Source: a bacterium
GTDB taxonomy: Bacteria; Patescibacteriota; Minisyncoccia; Phycocordibacterales; UBA2100
Reading direction: 5' to 3'
Assembly: GCA_009924895.1 (NCBI GenBank)
Contig: RFQR01000003.1
Span: 1,066 to 65,065 of the forward strand
DNA: 64,000 bases
In this document: piece by piece, positions 9,279 to 58,351 of the stretch
How positions within the stretch are numbered: the first letter of the stretch is position 1
Layout: each line of letters begins with the position of its first letter
The notes under the pieces: model-generated
The model's database searches: none
What the model was told of the DNA's origin: nothing
The model's input: the letters and a program-made list of their open reading frames with translations, nothing else
Translations under genes and position numbers: made by a program

Positions 9279-10463
9279 TTGTATGATGCTTGGATGACAT
9301 TATTGCGCCCCCGGCAACACACTCTTTTAATTGCCCTCGTTGCAGTAATGCTTGGATATCCCATGTTGAAAATGGAGCAAATTCATACGCAGGAAACTTT
9401 TGAAATGCAGGGTCAGACTGCGGCTGTGAGTACCCCAGAAAAAGCACTGCCTGAAAAAAGCAACGAGATAAACAAAGAAAGATCGGGGCTTCCGACTTCC
9501 CCGATACCTCCAAAAGCTTTGACAGCCACACCTTCATCTTCAGACATACGAAGAGTAGGGATCACGACTAAACCCAACCAAGCGCAACGACTCATTAATC
9601 CCTACCCCTTCCCTCCTTCTGCACCCGAAATTATAAATGCGCAAGCCCGTACGGCACTCATAAATATTATCTGTGCCGGCGAAAATTCTATTCAGCCTGT
9701 TTCGGGAAGCGGTGTTTTTATCGATCCACGGGGCATTATCCTTACCAACGCTCATGTCGCGCAGTACGTTTTGCTCTCCGAAGACCCCCGTGTAGACCTC
9801 TCATGCTCCATCCGCTCCGGCTCTCCCGCCGAATCTCGATTTCGGGCTCGCGTGTTACACCTTCCGCGTTCATGGGTCGAGGAACACGCTGATGAAATCA
9901 ATAAAAGCAGGATCAAGGGTACCGGAGAACACGACTATGCGCTCCTTTTGATTACCGCCGGTGTCGACTCTCCCCTTCCCAGTACTTTTCCCTTCATACC
10001 TATCGATGCACGTGAGGCAATCGCCTTTACGGATGATACTGTCCTCACCGCAAGTTACCCTGCAGAATTTACAGGAGGACTTATAACACAGCGTGAGTTG
10101 TATGCTGTGAGTGCATGGGCACATATAACTGAATTGCATACCTTCAGGACAGGAACTGTTGACGCTTTTTCCCTGAGCAGTACAGTCGGCAGCCAGAGCG
10201 GTTCCTCTGGTGGCCCCGTTGTTAATGGCTGGCAACGTCTTGTTGGGATTATCACCACAATGAGCGGCGGGACTGCGACTGCAGACCGAAGCCTCCAGGC
10301 AATTAGTCTTGCCAGTATTTCTCGTGATATGCAAACTGATACCGGCTCGACATTAGAGCAATTTCTTACCCAAAATATTGAGGATCTGCTGGAGCGATTT
10401 GAAAAAATACGCAGCGAACTTTTGAATACTCTTGTAGCCCCGCTGTTGAAGCAACCTCGTTAG
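9279..10463 (+). CDS. Membrane-anchored trypsin-like (S1/HtrA-type) serine protease
   Basis: N-terminal TM helix; catalytic His (GSGVFIDPRGIILTNAHV), Asp (HDYALL), and Ser (GSSGGPVV). Confidence 0.7.
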   Translation: MYDAWMTLLRPRQHTLLIALVAVMLGYPMLKMEQIHTQETFEMQGQTAAVSTPEKALPEKSNEINKERSGLPTSPIPPKALTATPSSSDIRRVGITTKPNQAQRLINPYPFPPSAPEIINAQARTALINIICAGENSIQPVSGSGVFIDPRGIILTNAHVAQYVLLSEDPRVDLSCSIRSGSPAESRFRARVLHLPRSWVEEHADEINKSRIKGTGEHDYALLLITAGVDSPLPSTFPFIPIDAREAIAFTDDTVLTASYPAEFTGGLITQRELYAVSAWAHITELHTFRTGTVDAFSLSSTVGSQSGSSGGPVVNGWQRLVGIITTMSGGTATADRSLQAISLASISRDMQTDTGSTLEQFLTQNIEDLLERFEKIRSELLNTLVAPLLKQPR

Positions 10464-10464
10464 C

Positions 10465-10487
10465 TCGTGTCGGGCCGCTGGGAATCG
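10465..10487 (+). repeat. Distal 23-nt direct repeat of the tRNA-Pro 3' end plus 5 nt of trailer
   Basis: tcgtgtcgggccgctgggaatcg is identical to 10633..10655. Confidence 0.8.
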
Positions 10488-10594
10488 GTCAGGTATATTA
10501 ATTCTGTCGTCACAGAATTATTTGCACGACCCTGACTCGGCTGTTTTGCTTATGCGCAAAACATGCCTCCGTCTTTCGATTCCCAACGCAGCGG
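10487..10594 (+). repeat. Copy A of the tRNA-trailer structured repeat family
   Basis: ggtcagg, then hairpin1 aattctgtcgtcacagaatt, then ttgcacgaccctgactcgg, then hairpin2 gttttgcttatgcgcaaaac, then catgcctccgtctttcgattccc. Confidence 0.7.
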
Positions 10595-10637
10595 TGTACT
10601 GACACTACTGCTGCGACCCGCACACACTTCGTTCGTG

Positions 10638-10708
10638 TCGGGCCGCTGGGAATCGAACCCAGTCTACATGGTCCCAAACCATGCGTACTACCGGTATACT
10701 ACGGCCCG
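10638..10708 (-). tRNA. tRNA-Pro (anticodon UGG), no encoded CCA
   Basis: Acceptor CGGGCCG/CGGCCCG, anticodon arm CATGG-TTTGGGA-CCATG, T-arm CTGGG-TTCGATT-CCCAG. Confidence 0.85.
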
Positions 10709-10814
10709 CTCTTTGAAAACAGTCGAATAGTACCACATTGCACGCTGATTGGCTATTTGAAGCTGAAAATACTCGACTTTTTAGTGTTTCGCGGGACTGA
10801 TTTATAAAAGACAT

Positions 10815-11195
10815 CTAAAGGACATTCTCCGTAAATCTGCATTGCGCCCTCTTTTGCTCGGTATTTAAAAATACCGCAATGACATCTACCTGTGCTTCTG
10901 AGTTGGGGTACTTTTCTCGTAAATAGAACTCACCTGCTTTTCGAATCTTTTCCACCTTTCTTGGATCCACCTTCTCTTCTGGGTCCATCATTTCACGTGA
11001 AAAAGCCGAATCGGGTTCACGTGTAACGCTTTTAACCTCAACAAAGTGAATAACTCCTTCCTTCTTTGCAATAATATCCACCTCTCCCCATGGCTTACGA
11101 TAGCCTGTTTCAATGATTCGAAAGCCTTTTTGCTCTAAGAATCTGCAGGCGATTAACTCGCCTGTACCACCCCATTTTTTATTTTCACTTTTCAC
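10815..11195 (-). CDS. yraN: YraN-family (UPF0102) predicted endonuclease
   Basis: GELIACRFLEQKGFRII...GEVDIIAKKEGVIHFVEVK. GTG start. Confidence 0.75.
   Translation of the reverse strand: MKSENKKWGGTGELIACRFLEQKGFRIIETGYRKPWGEVDIIAKKEGVIHFVEVKSVTREPDSAFSREMMDPEEKVDPRKVEKIRKAGEFYLREKYPNSEAQVDVIAVFLNTEQKRAQCRFTENVL
10991..11002. promoter_or_regulatory. TTTCACGTGAAA palindrome, site 1 of 4 (inside yraN coding sequence)
   Basis: Perfect 12-bp palindrome. Confidence 0.5.
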
Positions 11196-11201
11196 GTGAA
11201 A
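11190..11201. promoter_or_regulatory. TTTCACGTGAAA palindrome, site 2 of 4 (overlaps the yraN GTG start)
   Basis: Perfect 12-bp palindrome. Confidence 0.5.
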
Positions 11202-11236
11202 TAGTGTATCACCTTGATAAAGCTCTATTTTAATCT

Positions 11237-11248
11237 TTTCACGTGAAA
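11237..11248. promoter_or_regulatory. TTTCACGTGAAA palindrome, site 3 of 4
   Basis: Perfect 12-bp palindrome. Confidence 0.5.
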
Positions 11249-11390
11249 TGGTCTTTCATTCGCAACTACAGCTACCTTCAGAGTTTTCAGTACAAAACAA
11301 TGTTCCTGCTTATCCGCATAGTAGAGCCACAACGTATTTCACAAGAAACGTATTTATTGCTACGTAGGCAATACTCAGACGAGTGAACCA

Positions 11391-11402
11391 TTTCACGTGA
11401 AA
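11391..11402. promoter_or_regulatory. TTTCACGTGAAA palindrome, site 4 of 4
   Basis: Perfect 12-bp palindrome. Confidence 0.5.
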
Positions 11403-11516
11403 ATATGTTTCTTAAGTAACATACTAATGAACAACAATGAAAATCTGTTTTATCCATGTTTAACGCCCTACTATCCTGCTATGGTACAAAATACTGACTT
11501 TTACATCTTTTGTCCT

Positions 11517-11556
11517 TTATCCACATATCCCCACAGTTTTCCACAGTTATGCACAT
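11517..11556 (+). promoter_or_regulatory. Cluster of four tandem DnaA-box-like 9-mers
   Basis: TTATCCACA (perfect), TATCCCCACA, TTTTCCACA, TTATGCACA: tttatccacatatccccacagttttccacagttatgcaca. Confidence 0.5.
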
Positions 11557-11692
11557 TCTTCCCCTATTAGGACGTTATGCGTCTAGCCAATCTTTACCAG
11601 CCAACCAGGGGTATAGAGGCTCTTTCAAAAATTGTGACTTGACAAGAACACTTCTTTTGTAATAGGGTGGCGACACATCCTTGCTATTTCAT

Positions 11693-12631
11693 ATGAACCA
11701 TCTTCTTTCTCGTGGCCTCCTGAGTACCTGTTTGGGGATTGTTGTTTTTCTAAGTCTTAGCGCTACTGCGCACGCTGACGTATCCAGCGTTGTGGTTACA
11801 AAAACTCTTGGTACCGGTTCATGTACCCCTCTTATGGTTTCAGCAATTCGCCCCTATATCTACGACGGCAATTTGCACTCTTTTGATATAACAGTGCGCG
11901 ATAATTCGAATGTTGTCATCACCGGCATAGCGGGTACAGAGGCTATACCATTTGAGGCACTATCACGATGGGGTACTGGCGTCCCAGGAGAAATACGAAT
12001 GCACGTTGATGTAGACACAACGAGTCTGGTACGCGCTCTCCCCGTCACCGTTACCATGATTTCAACCAAAGGGCAGGGGAGTCCGATCTGTATTTCTAAT
12101 GTCCAGTTTGTGCTTCCGTCGCAAAAGCCAATACCTGAGCCTCAGGCGCCAGCGCTTCCAAACCCTGTCTCATACACACCGACAATAAGTGTCATACCTA
12201 AAAATGAAATCCCTTCAGCACCCTCTACCGGTAAGACACCGACATCAAAATCCGATAGCAGGGAAGGGGAAGTTGCCCAGAAACCTACCCCCGGTGTATC
12301 CGTAACGAGCGCACTCACACAATCACTAAAGCGCGCCTGCGAGACACAACGATCGTCGCAGACTATTTGGGGACTCCTCCTCCTTGGATATGCGCTTTTT
12401 GCTGCCTATATTGCACTTATAAAGCCAGGCTTCCTCGCACGCTCACTTGAGGGACTTGCCGCAGCTATTGTGCTTCCGTTCATTGCACTCGTCGGATTCT
12501 GGTACTTCGCTGAACACTGCCGAGGAGCGGAGTGGGTGCAGCTTTTAACACCCGCTATCGCTTTGATAGCGCTTGTGGTTGCGTTTTGGGAAGAAGAGAA
12601 GGCACAGACTCTACCCTTGCTGCCTCGATAA
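11693..12631 (+). CDS. Secreted/membrane protein, hypothetical
   Basis: A signal peptide (MNHLLSRGLLSTCLGIVVFLSLSATAHA) and C-terminal TM helices. The ORF track begins at the TTG at 11681. Confidence 0.5.
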   Translation: MNHLLSRGLLSTCLGIVVFLSLSATAHADVSSVVVTKTLGTGSCTPLMVSAIRPYIYDGNLHSFDITVRDNSNVVITGIAGTEAIPFEALSRWGTGVPGEIRMHVDVDTTSLVRALPVTVTMISTKGQGSPICISNVQFVLPSQKPIPEPQAPALPNPVSYTPTISVIPKNEIPSAPSTGKTPTSKSDSREGEVAQKPTPGVSVTSALTQSLKRACETQRSSQTIWGLLLLGYALFAAYIALIKPGFLARSLEGLAAAIVLPFIALVGFWYFAEHCRGAEWVQLLTPAIALIALVVAFWEEEKAQTLPLLPR

Positions 12632-12645
12632 CATTCTTTACTTGT

Positions 12646-12676
12646 AAAAAGAGCCCCGTACGGGCTCTTTTTGCTT
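12646..12676 (+). terminator. Intrinsic terminator
   Basis: aaaaagagccc-cgtac-gggctctttttgctttt. Confidence 0.65.
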
Positions 12677-12711
12677 TTACAATGAAAAAAATATGCTATA
12701 GTCCCGTCATC

Positions 12712-12782
12712 GCGGGCATAGTTTAGTGGTAGAACGATACCTTGCCAAGGTATAGATCGGAGTTCGATTCTCCGTGCCCGCA
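12712..12782 (+). tRNA. tRNA-Gly (anticodon GCC), no encoded CCA
   Basis: Acceptor GCGGGCA/TGCCCGC, anticodon arm ATACC-TTGCCAA-GGTAT, T-arm CGGAG-TTCGATT-CTCCG. Confidence 0.85.
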
Positions 12783-12839
12783 CAAAACAATAAGCGAAGC
12801 GTTTGTTTTGGCTGGCACAGGAAAGTGCCTGCGCACTTT

Positions 12840-12942
12840 CCGTGGAGAATCGAAAAGCGGAATCATGTTTTTGCAGCAGCAAAAACGGATGAGCTAGGGT
12901 CGTGCGGCTTTGTGTGCGGCGGCGCACAAAGAACGCCTGACC
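12840..12942 (-). repeat. Copy E of the tRNA-trailer structured repeat family (antisense to tRNA-Gly GCC)
   Basis: The reverse complement reads ggtcagg, then hairpin ctttgtg..cacaaag, then ccgcacgaccctagctc, then hairpin gtttttgctgctgcaaaaac, then catgattccgcttttcgattctcc. Confidence 0.7.
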
Positions 12943-12993
12943 GATCGAGTGCCCTCCATGCTTGGGAGATTCGAGTGACTGCACAAAAGAGCT

Positions 12994-13497
12994 TTAGGTT
13001 GAAATAATGTCATTTTTACCGACGAAGTAACCCTCGGTCATTTCAAGTTCTATTGGTTCAGATAAATATTGAATTGTATTTTTCGCAACTGCATTTTCAA
13101 TGAGTTGATTGGAGTATACAGGACTCACACCTTCTGAACACGAGAGGGTAATGTGAGGGTATTTATTAGTTGATTTCGGGTTTTCGACCAGCAACGCATC
13201 ACCACGCTCATCTGATATACGTGCAAGAACTTTTATTCGACATTTACGCCCAACATCGATACCGTCAACTGAGCCTGGTTAAAAAGCGATTGTTGAGTGG
13301 TGCGCCAGAACTCGTTTATGTTTCGGTGGGAATTGCGAAATGAGGTCCGGGACGTTATTTACAAACAGAGCTGTGTAGACCGGTACTATCGCTTCTGCTT
13401 TTTCTAGCCCCTTACGATAAAAATGGTTTCCAATTTTACAACATCTCCCGCCCGTGGCTTTTCTTTCATGGTGACATTCTAGCATCCTACGCAACAT
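12994..13497 (-). pseudogene. LigT/ThpR-like 2H phosphoesterase (RNA 2',3'-cyclic phosphodiesterase) interrupted by one in-frame TAA
   Basis: The two H-x-T/S-x motifs (HHSTIAF and HITLS) lie in the same frame, split by a TAA at 13279..13281. Reading through gives a ~167 aa protein: ...HHSTIAF*PGSVDGIDVGRKCRIKVLARISDERGDALLVENPKSTNKYPHITLS.... Confidence 0.55.
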
Positions 13498-13546
13498 GAC
13501 TATAGGTCACAGATATTTGCTTACCTCGGCAAAAAGGGTCTTTTGT

Positions 13547-13639
13547 GGTCAGAGATAATTTCTGCTCCGTCGAGCAGAAATTTCCACGACCCTGCCTCCG
13601 CCGTTTTCTCTGCTGAGAAAACATGCGTCCAACTTGCAC
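13547..13639 (+). repeat. Copy B of the tRNA-trailer structured repeat family
   Basis: ggtcag, then hairpin aatttctgctccgtcgagcagaaatt, then ttccacgaccctgcctccg, then hairpin gttttctctgctgagaaaac, then catgcgtccaacttgcac. Confidence 0.7.
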
Positions 13640-13683
13640 AAAAGCAGAAAACCTGGCGTTAGCCAGGCTTTCTGTTTTTAGGT

Positions 13684-13776
13684 GGTCAGGAATAATGCAC
13701 TTGTCGCCACTCATGCATTTTCCCGACCCGGACTCGTCCGTTTTTGCTACTGCAAAAACATGACTCCGTCTTGCAC
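13684..13776 (+). repeat. Copy C of the tRNA-trailer structured repeat family
   Basis: ggtcagg, then aatgca..tgcatt, then ttcccgacccggactcg, then hairpin gtttttgctactgcaaaaac, then catgactccgtcttgcac. Confidence 0.7.
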
Positions 13777-13782
13777 TACGCG

Positions 13783-13815
13783 AAAAGAGACTGGCGCAGG
13801 CCAGTCTCTTTTCGT
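13783..13815. terminator. Hairpin terminator between the repeat array and tRNA-Arg
   Basis: gagactgg-cgcagg-ccagtctc flanked by T-runs (ttttcgtctt). Confidence 0.5.
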
Positions 13816-13820
13816 CTTAG

Positions 13821-13892
13821 TGCACCCGTCAGGACTTGAACCTGAAATAGCGCTTCCGAAGAGCGCCGTGATATCCATTTCACCACGGGTGC
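13821..13892 (-). tRNA. tRNA-Arg (anticodon UCG), no encoded CCA
   Basis: Acceptor GCACCCG/CGGGTGC, D-arm GTGA..TCAC, anticodon arm GCGCT-CTTCGGA-AGCGC, T-arm TCAGG-TTCAAGT-CCTGA. Confidence 0.85.
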
Positions 13893-13904
13893 AGTGTGAG
13901 AACT

Positions 13905-14588
13905 CTATCGTTTTTTTACGAAATGTGCAAAAAGCAACTTCTGAAAAAATTGCATGGTGCGAAGTGTTCTTATTCCTGGAATTTCCAACCTTAAGCAACC
14001 TTTGTAGTTAGGTCTCTTTTTGTATTGCAATCCGGTTGGTTTATAAATCGTTTTCAAGAACTGCCCCAGCGGAACCCCGAGCTCTTTGGACCACCACTCT
14101 TCACACCGCTCGTGCGCGTATGACTTATGAATATACAAGCGGAATCTCATCTCATTTTTGGAAAACTTCAAAAACTTTTCTGCCCAGAGAACGATAACAT
14201 TCATCATTTCGCTATCAGAGTTAACAAACTGGAATGCACTGCTTCTCTTTGCTCCCTCAGCCCAGTACAGAGAAACTCCGGCGGTGAAAAAAGAATCCTC
14301 GGCAAAGTTTGTAAACATATGTTCGCATTCTTTAAACAATATTGCTTCCCTAGCAAGTCGTGCATTTCTGTGAGCGGATGCTGCACGTATTCTACCTTTT
14401 GTTACATTTTTACTAACTCGATTCAGGAGTGACCTCTTCTCGTCTTTTGTTAAAGGAAAATCTTTGAGCCACAGTGACAGTAAACTTTTTGCAACGGGCA
14501 GTATTTGTCGTATCTCACGGTAACTCAAGCCCCTCCTTCTTAATTGCATAGCCTGCTCTCTTTCTGAAACCAGTTTCCTCATGTACAT
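13905..14588 (-). CDS. HTH + LAGLIDADG-like protein, paralog of 8552..9247
   Basis: LRRRGLSYREIRQILPVAKSLLSLW (HTH), AGVSLYWAEGAK (LAGLIDADG-like), WSKELGVP. It ends 12 nt before the tRNA-Arg 5' end. Confidence 0.5.
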   Translation of the reverse strand: MYMRKLVSEREQAMQLRRRGLSYREIRQILPVAKSLLSLWLKDFPLTKDEKRSLLNRVSKNVTKGRIRAASAHRNARLAREAILFKECEHMFTNFAEDSFFTAGVSLYWAEGAKRSSAFQFVNSDSEMMNVIVLWAEKFLKFSKNEMRFRLYIHKSYAHERCEEWWSKELGVPLGQFLKTIYKPTGLQYKKRPNYKGCLRLEIPGIRTLRTMQFFQKLLFAHFVKKR

Positions 14589-14644
14589 AACAATAACACA
14601 AGGTTCATATAGTGCTTTGGGTGCTTGTGTATTACAATTTGCCC

Positions 14645-16108
14645 ATGCACCAGCTTCACATTCCCCATGAAGTTCGCGCGCTGTGCGAGCAACTCAAAGC
14701 AGCGGGGTATGAGTGCTACCTTGTGGGCGGGTGTGTGCGCGATTTATTGCTTCATCGGGAACCAAAAGACTGGGATATAACCACAAACGCTACCCCCGAA
14801 CAGGTACAGGCAGTATTCCCCGACTCATTCTATGAAAACGACTATGGCACCGTGGGGGTCAAAACAGGGTCTGAAAATGCAAAATTAGCAGTAGTGGAGA
14901 TAACGCCGTACCGCACCGAGGGGTCATACACGAATGCGAGGCATCCCGATCATGTTTCATGGAGTACGATGCTCTCAGAAGACCTTAAACGGCGAGATTT
15001 TACGATAAACGCGATCGCCTATGATGCACTTGCACACACTCTCGTGGATGAGCATGGAGGACAGACAGATCTGCAGCGCAAAGTATTGGTAACGGTAGGG
15101 GATCCGCATGCTCGTTTTACGGAAGATGCCCTGCGCATGCTCCGAGCAATACGGCTTTCAGTAGAACTTGATTTTGCACTCGATGGCACAACCGCCACGG
15201 CGATAGCCGAACAGTCGACGCATCTTGAGAAGATATCAAAAGAGCGTATTCGAGACGAATTTTCTCGACTAATCCTGAGTGATCGACCGATGCAAGCCCT
15301 GTATGTCGCCCAGAAACTCGGCGTTTTGAAACATATTGTGCCCGAGCTGGAAGAGGGAATAGGGTGCGATCAAAACCAAGCTCACTCATTCGATGTGTTT
15401 GAGCACAACCTCCGTTCACTGCAGCATGCAGCGGATAAGAACTGGTCGCTCCAAGTACGACTCGCTGCGCTCCTGCATGATGTAGGAAAACCAGCGGCGC
15501 GTAGATGGGGGGATGAAAAGAGGGACTGGACCTTCCATGGTCATGAGGTACTTGGCGCACGCATGGCCGAGAAAATCTTGAAAACACTAGTGTTTCCGAA
15601 GGATATCATCCAAGTGGTAACTTCGTTGGTGCGCTGGCACATGTTTTTTGCTGATCCGGACCAGGTGACACTCTCTGCAGTACGCCGCATCATCACCAAC
15701 GTAGGAAAAGAACACATTACTGACTTGCTTCACCTGCGCATGTGCGACCGCATAGGAACAGGGCGACCGAAAGAACAGCCCTTTCGCTTGCGCAAATACA
15801 TGGCAATGGTCGACGAAGCACTTCGTGACCCAATCACGGTTGGGATGCTCAAAATTGATGGTACGAAGCTCCTTGCTATGGGGGAAAAACCGGGGCCGCG
15901 CATCGGATGGACACTCCACGCGCTCCTTGAGGAGGTTCTCGATAATCCCGAAAAAAACACTTCCGAATATCTTGACAAGCGAGCAAAAGAATTGTTTATA
16001 CTAAATGAAGCCGAGCTCCGATCTCTCGGAGAGGCGGGAAAGGAAAGGCGTGGAAAGGAAGATGAGGCTGCAGTTGCGGCACTACGAACACATCACCACG
16101 TAGCATAA
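14645..16108 (+). CDS. cca: CCA-adding tRNA nucleotidyltransferase with HD domain
   Basis: GGCVRDLLL...DWDI (pol-beta NTase) and HD (LLHDVGKP). The ORF-track start at 14612 is a GTG; the ATG at 14645 is preferred. Confidence 0.8.
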   Translation: MHQLHIPHEVRALCEQLKAAGYECYLVGGCVRDLLLHREPKDWDITTNATPEQVQAVFPDSFYENDYGTVGVKTGSENAKLAVVEITPYRTEGSYTNARHPDHVSWSTMLSEDLKRRDFTINAIAYDALAHTLVDEHGGQTDLQRKVLVTVGDPHARFTEDALRMLRAIRLSVELDFALDGTTATAIAEQSTHLEKISKERIRDEFSRLILSDRPMQALYVAQKLGVLKHIVPELEEGIGCDQNQAHSFDVFEHNLRSLQHAADKNWSLQVRLAALLHDVGKPAARRWGDEKRDWTFHGHEVLGARMAEKILKTLVFPKDIIQVVTSLVRWHMFFADPDQVTLSAVRRIITNVGKEHITDLLHLRMCDRIGTGRPKEQPFRLRKYMAMVDEALRDPITVGMLKIDGTKLLAMGEKPGPRIGWTLHALLEEVLDNPEKNTSEYLDKRAKELFILNEAELRSLGEAGKERRGKEDEAAVAALRTHHHVA

Positions 16109-17359: not shown

Positions 17360-18268
17360 TTATGCACGTCGTTTGCCGTGAAATTTACTGTGAACCTCGC
17401 GGAGGTGTTTGTCGGTCACATGGGTGTAGACCTGCGTCGTAGCAATATTAGCGTGACCGAGGAGTGCTTGGACACTGCGCAAATCCGCACCATTCTCGAG
17501 GAGGTCCGTCGCAAACGAGTGGCGAATGACGTGTGGCGTGACTTTGCGCGTAATACCAGCCTTTATCGCATACTGTTTTACCATACGCTCTACCGAGCGG
17601 GTGGTAAGACGTTCAGGTTCTTTTTTACGCGATCCTTTACCGTAGCCAACGAAGAGCGCATCGCTTATGTCGCCACGCTTGTCGAGATACTTTTTAATTG
17701 CATGTTTCGCGGCAGGGGAGAGAAAGACAACGCGCACTTTTTCGCCCTTGCCTCGCACCGAAAATTCATCGCGTGACAAATCAAGATCATTATTGAGCGC
17801 ACACAATTCTGAGACGCGCAGTCCAGTAGAAAAAAAGAGTTCGAGAATAGCGCGATCGCGAAGCGCGGGAAGCTCCTCGCCCTGCGGCCCTTTCATGAGG
17901 CGGTCTAACTCTGCTGCGGTAATAAGATCGAGGTCGCGCGCGCCGATTTTGGCAAGTTCTATCTTTTCCGGATTGAGTGACGGAATCTCGAGTTTTCGTA
18001 GGTATTTGAGAAACGCACGTAGCGCAATTAAGTAATAGTTTTGCGTTTTGCGCTTCATTTCTCCTGAAACACCTTTTTGGCGATTAAGCCATGTGCGAAA
18101 CTCACGTACATTCGTTTCTGTTATATCACTTGGTTTTTTGACAGGGGAGTGCTCAAGAAAACGCTCTAAGTAGTGTTGGTAGTTCTCAACGGTTTTTACC
18201 GAGCGACCTTTTTCGATTTCGAGATATTCAAGGAATTGTCGGGTGAGGCCGCGCACATCGCTTACCAT
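17360..18268 (-). CDS. Tyrosine recombinase XerC/XerD family
   Basis: The catalytic HVIRHSFATDLLENGADLRSVQALLGHANIATTQVYTHV (R..H..Y) and an N-terminal SAM-like domain. Confidence 0.85.
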   Translation of the reverse strand: MVSDVRGLTRQFLEYLEIEKGRSVKTVENYQHYLERFLEHSPVKKPSDITETNVREFRTWLNRQKGVSGEMKRKTQNYYLIALRAFLKYLRKLEIPSLNPEKIELAKIGARDLDLITAAELDRLMKGPQGEELPALRDRAILELFFSTGLRVSELCALNNDLDLSRDEFSVRGKGEKVRVVFLSPAAKHAIKKYLDKRGDISDALFVGYGKGSRKKEPERLTTRSVERMVKQYAIKAGITRKVTPHVIRHSFATDLLENGADLRSVQALLGHANIATTQVYTHVTDKHLREVHSKFHGKRRA

Positions 18269-18552
18269 GCCGTGATTGTACCAGTGACCCTCTCTCCATG
18301 CACTTGACTTACTGTAGTGGTGGACAATGCCTCGCTGCTTTGCAACGAGATAGAGGGCAAAGCTGTTTTATGTACTGATCTCTGACAAAAAGCACATAGA
18401 AAACTGCTATTATGATGATATCGATGAATTTGAGCGCTCTAACTCATTCGAAAAAATTCCTCTCTCGCCAGAATTTTTCGAGCTCATGATTGAGTATGCA
18501 GATAACGTCGTTTAATTCTATCGAGTCAAGATCTGGCTCAAAAAACTATGTT

Positions 18553-20646: not shown

Positions 20647-21006
20647 ATGCAGAGCTATCGAGAGCTTTTGGTATGGCAAAAAAGTATCGAATTGGTGGCA
20701 GAAATTTATAAATTAATATCACATTTTCCAAAATCAGAATTATTTGCATTAACCACCCAGGTGCGTAGAGCAGCTGTTTCAATACCATCAAACATTGCCG
20801 AGGGTTATACCCATAAGCATAAGGCAGAATACATTCAGTTTTTACGAATCGCATTCGGTTCAGGCGCAGAATTAGAGACACAACTTTGCATTGCGAAAAA
20901 AGTAGGACTTGCAGAAGAAAAACTTTTTATGATTTCTGATGGGCTCTTATCTGAAGTAATGCGCATGTTAAACAAATTACAATCATCCCTAGTGGCAAAA
21001 CCCTAG
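20647..21006 (+). CDS. Four-helix-bundle protein (23S rRNA intervening-sequence protein family)
   Basis: YRELLVWQKSIELVAEIYKLISHFPKSELFALTTQVRRAAVSIPSNIAEG is the family signature. Visibly AT-rich. Confidence 0.75.
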   Translation: MQSYRELLVWQKSIELVAEIYKLISHFPKSELFALTTQVRRAAVSIPSNIAEGYTHKHKAEYIQFLRIAFGSGAELETQLCIAKKVGLAEEKLFMISDGLLSEVMRMLNKLQSSLVAKP

Positions 21007-21026
21007 TGACTAACTATCTATAACTT

Positions 21027-58161: not shown

Positions 58162-58351
58162 ACATCAAGTGAGCCTGTCATGTTTTTGGGATAGTGCACC
58201 CCAATGTGTTCGTATCCTTTTTCGGTCACAGCGCGACCGCGGGGCGTGAGATGGGGATGGGGCCCCATCGCAAGACCGGACTGAGCACAGGCGAAGGAGG
58301 TTGGGGTCGCACAACTCGCTAGCAAGCGAGTATGCGTGACCGCTCCAATCT

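Follow-up and report, generated by a model that had tools for sequence, protein, structure and literature searches.

Does the exact duplication of a tRNA 3' end mark site-specific recombination or homing, as an earlier note on this DNA had argued from the identical boundaries of two such repeats, or is it part of something else? The locus lies behind a tRNA-Pro(TGG) gene in a 64,000-nt stretch of Patescibacteria DNA, here called the window. The sequence TCGTGTCGGGCCGCTGGGAATCG has exactly two copies in the window (X and X' in Table 1), with no third match there even when 3 mismatches were allowed; none of 100 dinucleotide-preserving shuffles gave a match, and none is expected by chance. On the tRNA strand the repeat reads CGATT CCCAG CGGCCCG A CACGA, which spans T-loop C56 to the discriminator A73 plus 5 trailer bases. 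The window search and the shuffles bear out what had been reported of this repeat, namely that it is exact and where its copies lie. Also correct were the 23-nt repeat at tRNA-Gly(TCC), which likewise runs from C56 to +5, the start-to-start spacings of 168 bp (Pro) and 175 bp (Gly), and the description of the Pro insert as a copy of a repeated element, which the covariance model R1 recognizes with 86.5 bits at 10487-10577(-).

That the duplication is an assembly artefact, a collapsed or chimeric repeat, has next to no probability. Contigs of two other assemblies of the species do break inside the neighbouring Gly(GCC) repeat region, but an independent 388-kb assembly of the same species (L122) is 100% identical over the Pro and Gly(TCC) units, and the architecture recurs in >100 independent, unrelated MAGs.

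The unit bounded by the repeat

The 145 nt between the two copies contain the tRNA end once more, in antisense, and a ~90-nt core of two hairpins, so that on the tRNA strand the unit has the order tRNA-X, hairpin, antiX, core, X' (Table 1). The antisense segments of the Pro insert had been overlooked, as had the antisense tRNA-end copy inside each of the other inserts. There is no ORF in the 145 nt, which are flanked by yraN and by a convergent trypsin-like protease gene (9279-10463), with X' beginning 1 nt beyond the stop codon of the latter. No integrase gene or remnant of one was found between or beside the Pro repeats; the nearest recombinase gene in the window is XerC/D-like, at a distance put at about 3.5 kb and, measured from tRNA-Pro, at about 7 kb. 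A gene for a CCA-adding enzyme (14612-16108) is adjacent.

Table 1. Positions of the parts of the tRNA-Pro unit and of related units in the window
Feature	Positions	Strand	Basis
tRNA-Pro(TGG), CCA not encoded	10637..10708	-	ARAGORN; Rfam tRNA model, 61.4 bits
X, proximal 23-nt repeat, C56-A73 + 5 trailer nt	10633..10655	-	repeat search
antiX1, GTGTGCGGGTCGC, antisense of acceptor 3' strand, discriminator and first trailer bases	10613..10625	-	sequence, MFE fold
P1 hairpin, between the two antisense segments	10588..10614	-	MFE fold
antiX2, GTTGGGAATCGAA, antisense of T-loop T54-T60 and T-stem 3' strand	10575..10587	-	repeat search, MFE fold
Core hairpin P2	10534..10573	-	alignment A1, RNAalifold, pair counts, R1 hit (86.5 bits)
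Core hairpin P3	10487..10531	-	alignment A1, RNAalifold, R1 hit, pair counts
X', distal 23-nt repeat	10465..10487	-	repeat search
Unit behind tRNA-Gly(TCC)	8311..8508	-	repeat search, R1 25.6 bits, fold
Gly(TCC): X	8486-8508	-	
Gly(TCC): terminator-like hairpin	8451-8482	-	
Gly(TCC): contiguous antiX	8425-8444	-	
Gly(TCC): divergent core	8334-8424	-	
Gly(TCC): X'	8311-8333	-	
Unit behind tRNA-Gly(GCC)	12783..12992	+	R1 95 bits, fold, strain comparison
Gly(GCC): hairpin	12783-12810	+	
Gly(GCC): P1	12820-12841	+	
Gly(GCC): antiX2	12842-12854	+	
Gly(GCC): core	12855-12942	+	
Gly(GCC): diverged distal arm	12943-12961	+	
Gly(GCC): degenerate tRNA 3'-end copy	12964-12992	+	
Two tandem short-type units behind tRNA-Arg(TCG)	13538..13816	-	R1 96.3 and 92.4 bits
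Arg: cores	13684-13770, 13547-13633	-	
Degenerate element copies	8333-8427, 58270-58341		R1 scan

P2 is made up of an outer 3 bp, a GGA/GA internal loop and an invariant CAUGUUUU/AAAAC stem, and P3 of a conserved foot, GGUCG/UGACC with a conserved G.U pair, and a GACG loop; the last C of P3 (10487) doubles as C56 of X'. The MFE fold predicted for the Pro unit has antiX1 paired to the 3' part of X' (positions 66-73 and beyond) and antiX2 to its 5' part (56-65), and P1 sits at the acceptor/T-stem junction of the resulting mimic. The helix reproduces an acceptor stem stacked on a T stem and keeps the discriminator and a single-stranded 3' tail; bases 56-60 of the T-loop take part in pairing, and the core stands in for the loop. 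P1 recurs among family members, usually with a CUGC loop. MFE folds of three long units all pair antiX with X' around P2/P3 (z-scores -7.2, -4.4 and -6.7), and even in short units antiX:X' is more stable than permuted controls (-7.8 vs -5.3 kcal/mol, p = 1.5e-5). Alternatively, antiX can pair upstream with the real tRNA end, in which case the pairing spans the junction (T54-T55 plus X). The Pro repeat is not a bare target-site duplication; its copies are the two sense arms of a folded element unit.

The distal duplicates previously described at tRNA-Arg and tRNA-Gly(GCC) are present, but their details needed correction. Each Arg unit has a P1/terminator-like hairpin, a short antiX, a core and an X' of ~7-9 nt; the distal copy noted there is thus only about 7 nt, that of a short-type unit. 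At tRNA-Gly(GCC) a better distal copy, recognized only via comparison with a conspecific strain, lies further 3' than the string first put forward (Table 1).

Core structure, distribution and junctions

At the gathering score, Rfam 15 finds only the four tRNAs in the window, and a search of 8000-14500 at E <= 5 gave no relevant match for the insert. The core family is uncatalogued and has no counterpart in Rfam, and full-text literature searches returned no description of the element. Compensatory (double) changes are seen in 19 of the 30 pairs of the core structure. Its cells are paired in 97.6% of cases, against 40-49% with the partner slid, and its covariation score of 0.564 compares with at most 0.107 slid and was reached by 0 of 500 shuffles. 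One G.U pair is kept in 86 of 89 sequences. Because G.U cells in the core far outnumber A.C cells (163 vs 18), the fold belongs to the tRNA-sense strand; the core is a structured sequence with strong strand-specific covariation. In the antiX:X' arms, G.U mismatches are no commoner than A.C mismatches (19 each); without a wobble bias, the arms look like decaying DNA copies and not like RNA-selected helices. There is no promoter-like site inside the units, so any transcript would be read-through from the tRNA; some of the unit hairpins resemble intrinsic terminators. A small ORF starting at a conserved CATG was considered and rejected, as the window's Pro copy stops after 4 codons and the P2 loop varies in length. 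Nor do the conserved loops, compared by eye with the covariation table, fit a kink-turn, box C/D, H/ACA or hammerhead motif.

The core occurs at no fewer than 118 genome loci, at least, almost all of them labelled Patescibacteria. Among the 122 pattern matches listed, 68 have a tRNA upstream on the same strand at a distance of 43-128 nt (mode 54-58), with at least 26 anticodons represented. Profile hits are behind tRNAs in 107 of 159 cases, and others are behind tmRNA, dnaJ-like and efp-like genes, where the same logic of X, antiX and X' holds. A distal 3'-end copy of >=12 nt follows 56 of 223 tRNAs, compared with 6 in an upstream control, and an antisense copy of >=12 nt follows 42 of the 223, compared with 1 in the control; such 3'-end copies occur with several unrelated cores. 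At the sampled loci, this core stands behind roughly one tRNA gene in two, and about a quarter of the tRNA genes have both sense and antisense 3'-end copies, frequencies that are biased by the selection of the sample through the core pattern. Some sub-families keep to one tRNA in different species, as at tRNA-Leu(TAG), with 7 loci. At 7 loci the element is oriented divergently to a tRNA, and no gene precedes it on its own strand.

C56 is the first base in 13 of 13 long repeats that adjoin this core behind tRNAs and in 3 of 3 behind tmRNA, and this 5' limit is a rule for the core type, not a coincidence. In other sub-families the 5' limit falls at positions 57-62. The 3' limit of the long repeats varies from -8 to +10 relative to the tRNA end, which makes the "+5" shared by Pro and Gly(TCC) coincidental. 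Repeats of 3 to 30 nt occur within the family; of 109 units, only about 19 reach >=11 nt, and in most units the distal copy has only 4-9 nt. From the identical boundaries at two tRNAs, the earlier note had inferred site-specific recombination or homing rather than random duplication. Its case for a non-random origin holds, the C56 limit is a rule, and the element shows the gain, loss and amplification described below, but the boundaries are not fixed at their 3' side, and neither classical site-specific recombination nor homing predicts an antisense arm that closes a strand-specifically covarying core.

The most familiar form of such recombination is integration of a prophage or island by a tyrosine integrase into the T-loop, in which case the repeats would be attL and attR and the 145-bp insert a deletion remnant. 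Williams is said to have described, in 2002, that T-loop-integrating elements give a block of identity from the T-loop to just beyond the tRNA end. A direct repeat of this kind is present here (C56 to +5), and as at classical tRNA sites the tRNA is left intact through a 3' end supplied by the insert. Moreover, at one locus (L125) a tRNA-Pro 3'-end copy lies 135 nt downstream and has no antisense arm and no core of this type, from which it follows that plain att-like duplications also occur at tRNA-Pro. However, the present insert has ~145 bp and no adjacent integrase, and an antisense target copy, covarying hairpins, tandem units and 4-9-nt arms are unexpected of att sites and left unexplained by them. 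The targets that share one core type number dozens, with at least 26 tRNA species besides tmRNA and protein genes, and no single att-specific integrase would account for this. No integrase or transposase travels with the element, and the core pattern had no match in 2.9 million viral contigs, on which ground a phage origin was dropped. The att reading is largely refuted, and we consider it highly improbable.

A MITE-like, non-autonomous transposon, with the repeat as a target-site duplication from staggered transposase cuts, is also very unlikely. The units are short, structured, multi-copy intergenic repeats that are polymorphic for presence and have near-identical copies at different loci, all as expected of MITEs. 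But a duplication of 3 to 30 nt in one family is not of fixed length, the inverted target copy lies inside the element, no transposase is nearby, and the units keep a strict placement and orientation with respect to gene ends. Terminal inverted repeats common to all copies are missing; antiX/X' alone is inverted, and these arms derive from the target and differ per locus. Neither a uniform duplication length nor an autonomous partner sharing the element ends was seen.

Turnover between genomes

Comparison of genomes shows gain, loss and amplification of the element during evolution. In L013 and L120/L121, relatives with conserved synteny, the tRNA-Pro gene lacks it, and in a conspecific strain of roughly 100% identity the Gly(GCC) unit is tandemly doubled. 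Tandem arrays are also found in L088, L096 and L097. For an empty tRNA-Pro allele of the species itself, the exact 36-mer junction had 0 hits in JGI metagenomes, a result that is uninformative alone; a scan with the tRNA-Pro body, used in its place, gave 22 loci. Cores at different loci of one genome can be 92-98% identical and carry different arms, a similarity that could reflect gene conversion rather than movement. The nearest-neighbour core is usually at another tRNA, with the same tRNA label shared in 13 of 83 cases. In L107, an arm that matches tRNA-Ala sits behind an unrelated terminator.

The explanation that we favor, with about even confidence, is a duplicative element, selfish or domesticated, that folds as a single strand, probably as read-through RNA, and takes its arms from its target. 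A unit would land 3' of a gene, mostly a tRNA gene, and copy its arms from that gene end, giving X, one or two small hairpins (often terminator-like), antiX, the ~90-nt P2/P3 core and X'. For tRNAs, antiX runs from the trailer back to T54, and in this sub-family X' and P3 meet at C56, the final base of P3. In the single strand antiX would pair with X' and the helix would close the core, with the long Pro form producing a minihelix mimic. Activity of the core would reside in the tRNA-sense strand, most likely in RNA transcribed onward from the tRNA, with transcription assumed to continue through the hairpins, including the terminator-like ones. The direct repeats X and X' may then support unequal recombination or slippage, which would keep them identical, generate tandem arrays and permit clean loss. 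We infer transcription, the copying step and any cellular role, and we know of no demonstrated process by which a target is duplicated in sense and antisense on the two sides of an insert. This point, the 7 loci divergent from a tRNA, the arms without wobble bias and the failure to find an empty tRNA-Pro allele in JGI metagenomes count against our explanation. An origin from a classical integrase or transposase agrees poorly with the data.

Alternative mechanisms and known systems

Instead of acting as RNA, a miniature integrating element might recombine as folded ssDNA, with the duplex of antiX and X mimicking the tRNA-gene target. A host tyrosine recombinase or an HUH enzyme would exchange one strand at T55|C56, and replication would complete the event. 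A circle of X, hairpin, antiX and core that opens at core|X and is ligated into a target cut at 55|56 would yield exactly tRNA(1-55)-X-hairpin-antiX-core-X'-flank, the observed order. The scheme also predicts the fixed C56 5' junction with a variable 3' limit, the antisense arm, a ~90-nt structured "loop," tandem arrays and strand-specific folding with G.T tolerated; arms without wobble bias fit DNA copies, and the window holds a XerC/D-like recombinase gene. It has a precedent in CTXphi attP(+), a folded (+)ssDNA with a 90-bp spacer that undergoes a single strand exchange completed by replication, and the integrated product of CTXphi/IMEX has a direct target repeat with an inverted copy near one end (PMC4246890).

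With CTXphi/IMEX and integron attC sites the units share inverted target-like copies ~90 nt apart, a hairpin on one strand, structure conserved above sequence and arrays. Unlike in those systems, the target here is a local gene end and not dif or attI, of which no consensus is involved in the units; the arms differ per locus, there is neither cargo nor a dedicated recombinase, and the "loop" is a conserved two-hairpin structure. Several observations weigh against the ssDNA scheme, which we regard as rather unlikely. The element lacks a consistently linked recombinase, the conserved foot of P3 (CCTGAC) is unlike the tRNA half-site (GGGTT) that a tyrosine recombinase would need, and the arms of short-type units have just 4-9 nt. 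L107 lacks the X and hairpin that should transfer together in a circle, and near-identical cores with different arms in one genome would require the arms to be reprogrammed at each move. A ~150-nt ssDNA circle has, to our knowledge, never been observed.

Alternatively, the units could encode a host-functional, vertically inherited ncRNA linked to tRNAs, in which X' resembles X because both pair with antiX. The minihelix mimic might be cut by RNase P or RNase Z and given a CCA, or the RNA might switch between two states, in which the 3' half of the tRNA is sequestered or free. The strong core covariation, conserved loops and conserved G.U pair fit such a role, as do the consistent location 3' of highly expressed RNA genes, the retention of sub-families at the same tRNA across species, and the adjacent gene for a CCA-adding enzyme next to tRNAs whose CCA is not encoded. 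At Gly(GCC), moreover, the antiX:X' helix is kept although X' has diverged and no longer resembles X. An acceptor/T-stem minihelix with discriminator and tail is the part of a tRNA that RNase P, RNase Z and the CCA-adding enzyme recognize, and the predicted fold shares its acceptor and T stems, discriminator and 3' tail with the tRNA-like domain of tmRNA, YrlA, MALAT1 mascRNA and viral TLS. It differs from these in having no T-loop, whose bases are paired and replaced by the core, and in being specific to the adjacent tRNA. We nevertheless consider a host ncRNA distinctly unlikely. X and X' are identical at 23/23, 23/23, 18/18 and 22/22 positions, including unconstrained trailer bases, which speaks for copying and not convergence. 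Relatives differ in whether a given tRNA carries the element, copy number differs between strains, nearest-neighbour cores seldom share a tRNA label (13/83), the arms lack wobble bias, and degenerate copies exist.

REP/BIME/REPIN, ERIC, Correia and BOX repeats resemble the present units in being short, multi-copy and hairpin-forming at gene 3' ends. They are co-transcribed, show compensatory changes and copy-number variation, and persist for a long time. They are, however, fixed sequences or have TIRs, without sense and antisense copies of a neighbouring gene end, and none that we know of is tied to tRNA position 56. In IS200/IS605 elements and in group I introns (P1/P10), an internal guide likewise pairs with the upstream flank or a downstream copy. 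The guide here has 7-23 nt, compared with 4-6 nt there, and there is no TnpA/TnpB.

A group I intron spliced at 55/56 was rejected. The P3-P9 catalytic core of such introns takes about 200 nt or more and is inserted within a gene; here the ~90-nt core of two hairpins is far too small for a ribozyme, the upstream tRNA is intact, no Rfam intron model gave a hit, and U.G and omega-G splice-site signatures are missing. The tRNA introns emphasized in a study of Patescibacteria lie at anticodon-loop position 35/36 (PMC13011429). We also discarded a retroviral-type primer-binding site, as the antisense arm complements trailer bases and not CCA, and a DGR TR/VR pair, for which the repeat is too short and adenine-specific differences are missing. 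Genes with an HTH/LAGLIDADG fold lie upstream of two of the tRNAs, and their products were examined as candidate homing enzymes. These belong to a conserved Patescibacteria family of >500 members, and the genes are outside the repeats, whereas LAGLIDADG-driven homing would place the endonuclease gene within the mobile insert; we therefore do not assign them to the element.

More tentatively, the units may represent an unrecognized class of elements that fold as single strands and either home to tRNA 3' ends or use them as templates, with antisense and sense copies and a junction at 55/56. If this is true at the DNA level, it would imply a new guide- or att-mimic mechanism of integration; at the RNA level, minihelix RNAs specific to each tRNA and entering the tRNA-processing machinery would form a new family. 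A tRNA-specific acceptor/T-stem mimic would then stand behind a quarter to half of the sampled Patescibacteria tRNA genes. Patescibacteria have some of the smallest bacterial genomes, and the element would be either an unusually successful tRNA-gene parasite, which does no harm because it restores the tRNA end, or a new layer of tRNA biology acting in processing, in termination or through decoy minihelices. The defined T55|C56 junction, a conserved core outside the Rfam families, natural copy-number variants and empty sites make this a testable system. For annotation, the units are of practical concern, in that they create pseudo-tRNA ends, break assemblies and can pass for prophage att sites.

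The tRNA-Pro repeat and the unit around it

The 23-mer TCGTGTCGGGCCGCTGGGAATCG is present as two exact copies in the 64-kb window, at 10465-10487 and 10633-10655. We found no further copy in the window at up to 3 mismatches, and 0 of 100 dinucleotide-preserving shuffles contained a match. Read on the tRNA strand (CGATT-CCCAG-CGGCCCG-A-CACGA), the repeat runs from T-loop C56 to the discriminator A73 and five trailer bases. Because it agrees in length and limits with the repeat at tRNA-Gly(TCC) (see table), the earlier note's description of matching 23-nt duplications is correct; its interpretation is partly supported. It missed an antisense copy of the insert's own tRNA end, which lies inside each insert and at tRNA-Pro consists of two segments.

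Repeats, antisense segments and core model hits in the window
Feature	Position	Strand	Remarks
tRNA-Pro(TGG)	10637-10708	minus	CCA not encoded
tRNA-Gly(TCC) repeat	8311-8333 and 8486-8508		length and limits equal those at tRNA-Pro
antiX2 of Pro unit	10575-10587		GTTGGGAATCGAA; complementary to T54 to C66
antiX1 of Pro unit	10613-10625		GTGTGCGGGTCGC; complementary to acceptor 3' strand, discriminator and first trailer bases
Core, Arg first unit	13684-13774	-	96.3 bits
Core, Gly(GCC)	12852-12942	+	95.0 bits
Core, Arg second unit	13547-13637	-	92.4 bits
Core, Pro	10487-10577	-	86.5 bits
Core, Gly(TCC), divergent copy	8333-8427	-	25.6 bits
Core, weak orphan	58270-58341	+	24.9 bits, E = 3e-4

Related sequence follows all four tRNAs of the window (4/4), in each case on the tRNA's own strand. 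The order of the unit is the gene 3' end (X), one or two small hairpins, the antisense copy (antiX), a ~90-nt core of two hairpins (P2 and P3), and the distal sense copy (X'). In single-strand folds of the Pro, Gly(GCC) and Gly(TCC) trailers, an antiX:X' helix closes a junction bearing P2 and P3, with fold energies much lower than shuffled sequence gives (z = -7.2, -4.4 and -6.7, respectively). The predicted helix of the Pro unit is equivalent to the tRNA acceptor stem stacked on the T stem, with the upstream hairpin P1 leaving at the junction of the two stems and the core taking the place of the T-loop. The tRNA-Arg carries two short-form units, with arms of just ~7-9 nt and a P1 that resembles an intrinsic terminator. 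The antiX:X' helix was more stable than permuted pairs, short units included (-7.8 vs -5.3 kcal/mol, p = 1.5e-5), and at tRNA-Gly(GCC) it is kept despite X' having lost its likeness to X.

Structure and distribution of the core

A search pattern derived from the four good window copies, applied to one-genome-per-species GTDB contigs, matched at least 118 loci, labeled nearly exclusively as Patescibacteria (Kaiser-, Nomura-, Taylor-, Lloyd-, Zambryski-, Vogel- and Adlerbacteria, or Paceibacterota). The pattern had no match in 2.9 million viral contigs, Rfam 15 contained no family matching the element, and we found no description of such an element in the full-text literature. The family is widespread in Patescibacteria, mimics tRNA 3' ends and is apparently undescribed so far.

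An alignment of 89 cores contains 30 base pairs, 19 of which show compensatory double changes. Paired cells made up 97.6% of the total, compared to 40-49% when the 3' partner was slid by 1-3 columns; the covariation score was 0.564, against at most 0.107 after sliding, and was equalled by 0 of 500 shuffles. Wobble cells far outnumbered A.C cells (163 vs 18), and a G.U pair at the P3 foot was conserved in 86 of 89 cores; this assigns the fold to the tRNA-sense strand, whether RNA or DNA. The conserved elements are the loops CUGC in P1, AGCA in P2 and GACG in P3, the P2 segment CAUGUUUU/AAAAC, and the P3 foot GGUCG/UGACC.

A covariance model made from this alignment and run on the window gave the core hits in the table. 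The weak orphan has an intact P3-like hairpin and a shortened P2, with no tRNA or Rfam match nearby, and is probably a decayed core copy. Some cores elsewhere (L023 and L007, two of the genome and metagenome loci compared) possess an extra ~55-nt hairpin domain within P3 (ACCACAGGAGTACTTCCATTTCTC...), a modular expansion like that known from functional RNAs.

Junctions and host genes

Distal copies of at least 11 nt were seen in ~19 of 109 full units vs 4 in the control. Where this core type follows a tRNA or tmRNA, all 16 long copies start at C56, 13 of them in units linked to tRNAs (including Gly CCC, Pro, Cys, two Ser, Trp, Leu, His, Gly TCC and Ile) and three in units linked to tmRNA; C56 doubles as the final base of the conserved P3 strand ...TGAC/C (slash, junction). 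Counted from the tRNA end, the 3' limit of these copies lies anywhere between -8 and +10, and antiX extends two bases beyond the 5' limit of X', always to T54. The identical boundaries from which the earlier note argued thus reflect a real rule for this core type at the 5' limit and a coincidence at the 3' limit.

A wider survey covered all 223 tRNAs of the loci compared, irrespective of core, counting copies of at least 12 nt. A 3'-end copy located 45-445 nt downstream followed 56 of these tRNAs (6 in the upstream control), although 9 of the 56 begin at the 5' strand of the T stem and are possibly neighboring tRNA genes; an antisense copy was present for 42 (1 in the control). Just half of the 56 have this core type. 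The remaining copies adjoin unrelated structured cores ending ...AGAT/T, ...GGGA/G and similar, and start at positions 57-62. The plan of X, antisense, core and X' is common to no fewer than three or four further core types (L013 6900-7045, L120 2147-2290, L096, L017, L070, L126 and L023), for example GCCCGATTG...CAATCGGG with an added small hairpin, or a GGTGCC...GGGA type; one of these types is kept behind tRNA-Leu(TAG) in seven genomes.

Among the matches listed, 68 of 122 pattern matches had a same-strand tRNA 43-128 nt upstream (mode 54-58), representing at least 26 anticodons, and a profile search placed 107 of 159 elements 3' of a tRNA. Within the sampled loci, 97 of 202 tRNAs carried an element, a sample biased by the choice of loci by core. 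Of the orphans, which are not placed behind a tRNA, seven lie behind tmRNA, with anti-acceptor, anti-T and distal arms, and more follow the stop codons of dnaJ-like or efp-like genes. The arms match, in each case, the sequence before the first hairpin; they are therefore target-derived, and the element is not in principle restricted to tRNA.

Turnover and candidate mechanisms

L013, a syntenic relative, shares the tRNA cluster (Arg TCG, Gly GCC, yraN, Pro TGG, protease, Gly TCC); its tRNA-Pro lacks the element and is followed by the next gene after 2 nt. The tRNA-Pro is likewise empty in L120/L121, which by YraN (59% identity) is the nearest relative outside the species; in place of the window's two short units, its tRNA-Arg is followed by a long-form unit whose core is a GC-rich variant and whose 18-nt distal copy is perfect. 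Across 22 metagenome loci that share the tRNA-Pro body, a variant long-form unit is present only in L134 and a plain distal copy only in L125; the others have nothing. In L125 (Ga0169931_10052205), the tRNA-Pro acceptor stem is identical to the window's, and the copy, TTCGATTCCCtcGGCCCGA, starts from T54 at 135 nt 3' of the tRNA; as it lacks both antisense arm and core, plain 3'-end duplications around other inserts occur at tRNA-Pro too.

Within the species, the ~100% identical independent assembly L122 has the Gly(GCC) unit tandemly doubled (8560-9120 vs window 12775-12992) with a 15-nt indel, two more assemblies (L123 and L124) stop exactly at this unit, and L122 matches the window exactly over the Pro and Gly(TCC) units. 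Tandem arrays were also found in L088, L096 and L097. Cores 92-98% identical occur at separate loci of one genome with differing arms (L116 Ala/Val; L032/L089), L107, which stands behind an unrelated terminator, has an arm that fits tRNA-Ala, like that of L095 from its genome, and nearest-neighbor cores had the same tRNA label in only 13 of 83 cases. Given the empty sites, copy-number changes and similar cores at other loci, the family turns over: it is gained, lost, amplified, and either moved or homogenized. An assembly artefact, the alternative allowed for in the earlier note, is excluded by independent assemblies and more than 100 MAGs. Of its reading as site-specific recombination or homing, the non-random placement, the site rule and evolutionary mobility hold; a simple recombination or homing scar does not.

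The evidence establishes the architecture, its conservation as a strand-specific structure, the rule of a C56 junction in this core type, and turnover among relatives and strains. Confidence is high in this descriptive model and moderate to low in any specific mechanism. We propose that the unit is a duplicative element whose arms would be copied from the gene end where it lands, and which would function folded, as a single strand that is most probably RNA from tRNA read-through. We found no promoter-like site inside the units, and their first hairpins are terminator-like. Unlike the core, arm mismatches show no wobble bias (G.U 19, A.C 19); the arms look like DNA copies in neutral decay, which counts against a purely RNA reading.

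At the DNA level, the most attractive rival would be integration of a miniature folded single-strand DNA, after CTXphi attP(+), where two inverted att sites with 90 bp between them fold on the (+) strand (PMC4246890), or integron attC. A circle of X, hairpin, antiX and core, opened between core and X and joined to a tRNA gene opened between T55 and C56, would reproduce the observed order exactly and account for tandem arrays and for a junction that is fixed on the 5' side while the 3' limit varies. Against this, the element has no linked recombinase, the P3 foot is unlike the tRNA half-site, near-identical cores bear different arms, and L107 lacks parts expected on such a circle.

Under the proposed duplicative element, the direct repeats X and X' could hold each other identical by unequal recombination or slippage, with tandem gain and clean loss as outcomes; we infer that the L122 duplication is one instance. 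The long form makes a predicted tRNA-specific minihelix mimic, a candidate substrate of RNase P, RNase Z and the CCA-adding enzyme.

Other known insertion types fit poorly. Classical integrase att duplication is at odds with the variety of targets, the antisense arm, the missing integrase and the lack of matches in viral contigs, and transposase target-site duplication with the variable length and the lack of shared terminal repeats. Group I introns are known in Patescibacteria tRNA genes, with insertion at position 35/36 highlighted (PMC13011429); size and signatures do not fit here.

Several features of the neighborhood were also recorded. The 12-bp palindrome TTTCACGTGAAA or close variants occur in four copies around yraN (10989-11403) and recur in the same neighborhood in L013 (~4080) and downstream of tRNA-Pro in L125 and L143; it resembles a conserved protein-binding site. 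ORF fragments at 12994-13497 (-), with a weak match to PF08302 (2',3'-cyclic phosphodiesterase domain, tRNA ligase; E = 2.8e-5), look like a disrupted gene, situated between the Gly(GCC) unit and those behind tRNA-Arg. By coordinates mapped from L122, an XerC/D-type tyrosine recombinase gene lies at ~17366-18274 (-), ~3.5 kb from the tRNA cluster, and a gene for a four-helix 23S-rRNA-IVP/Avd-like protein at ~20653-21012, ~3 kb beyond it.
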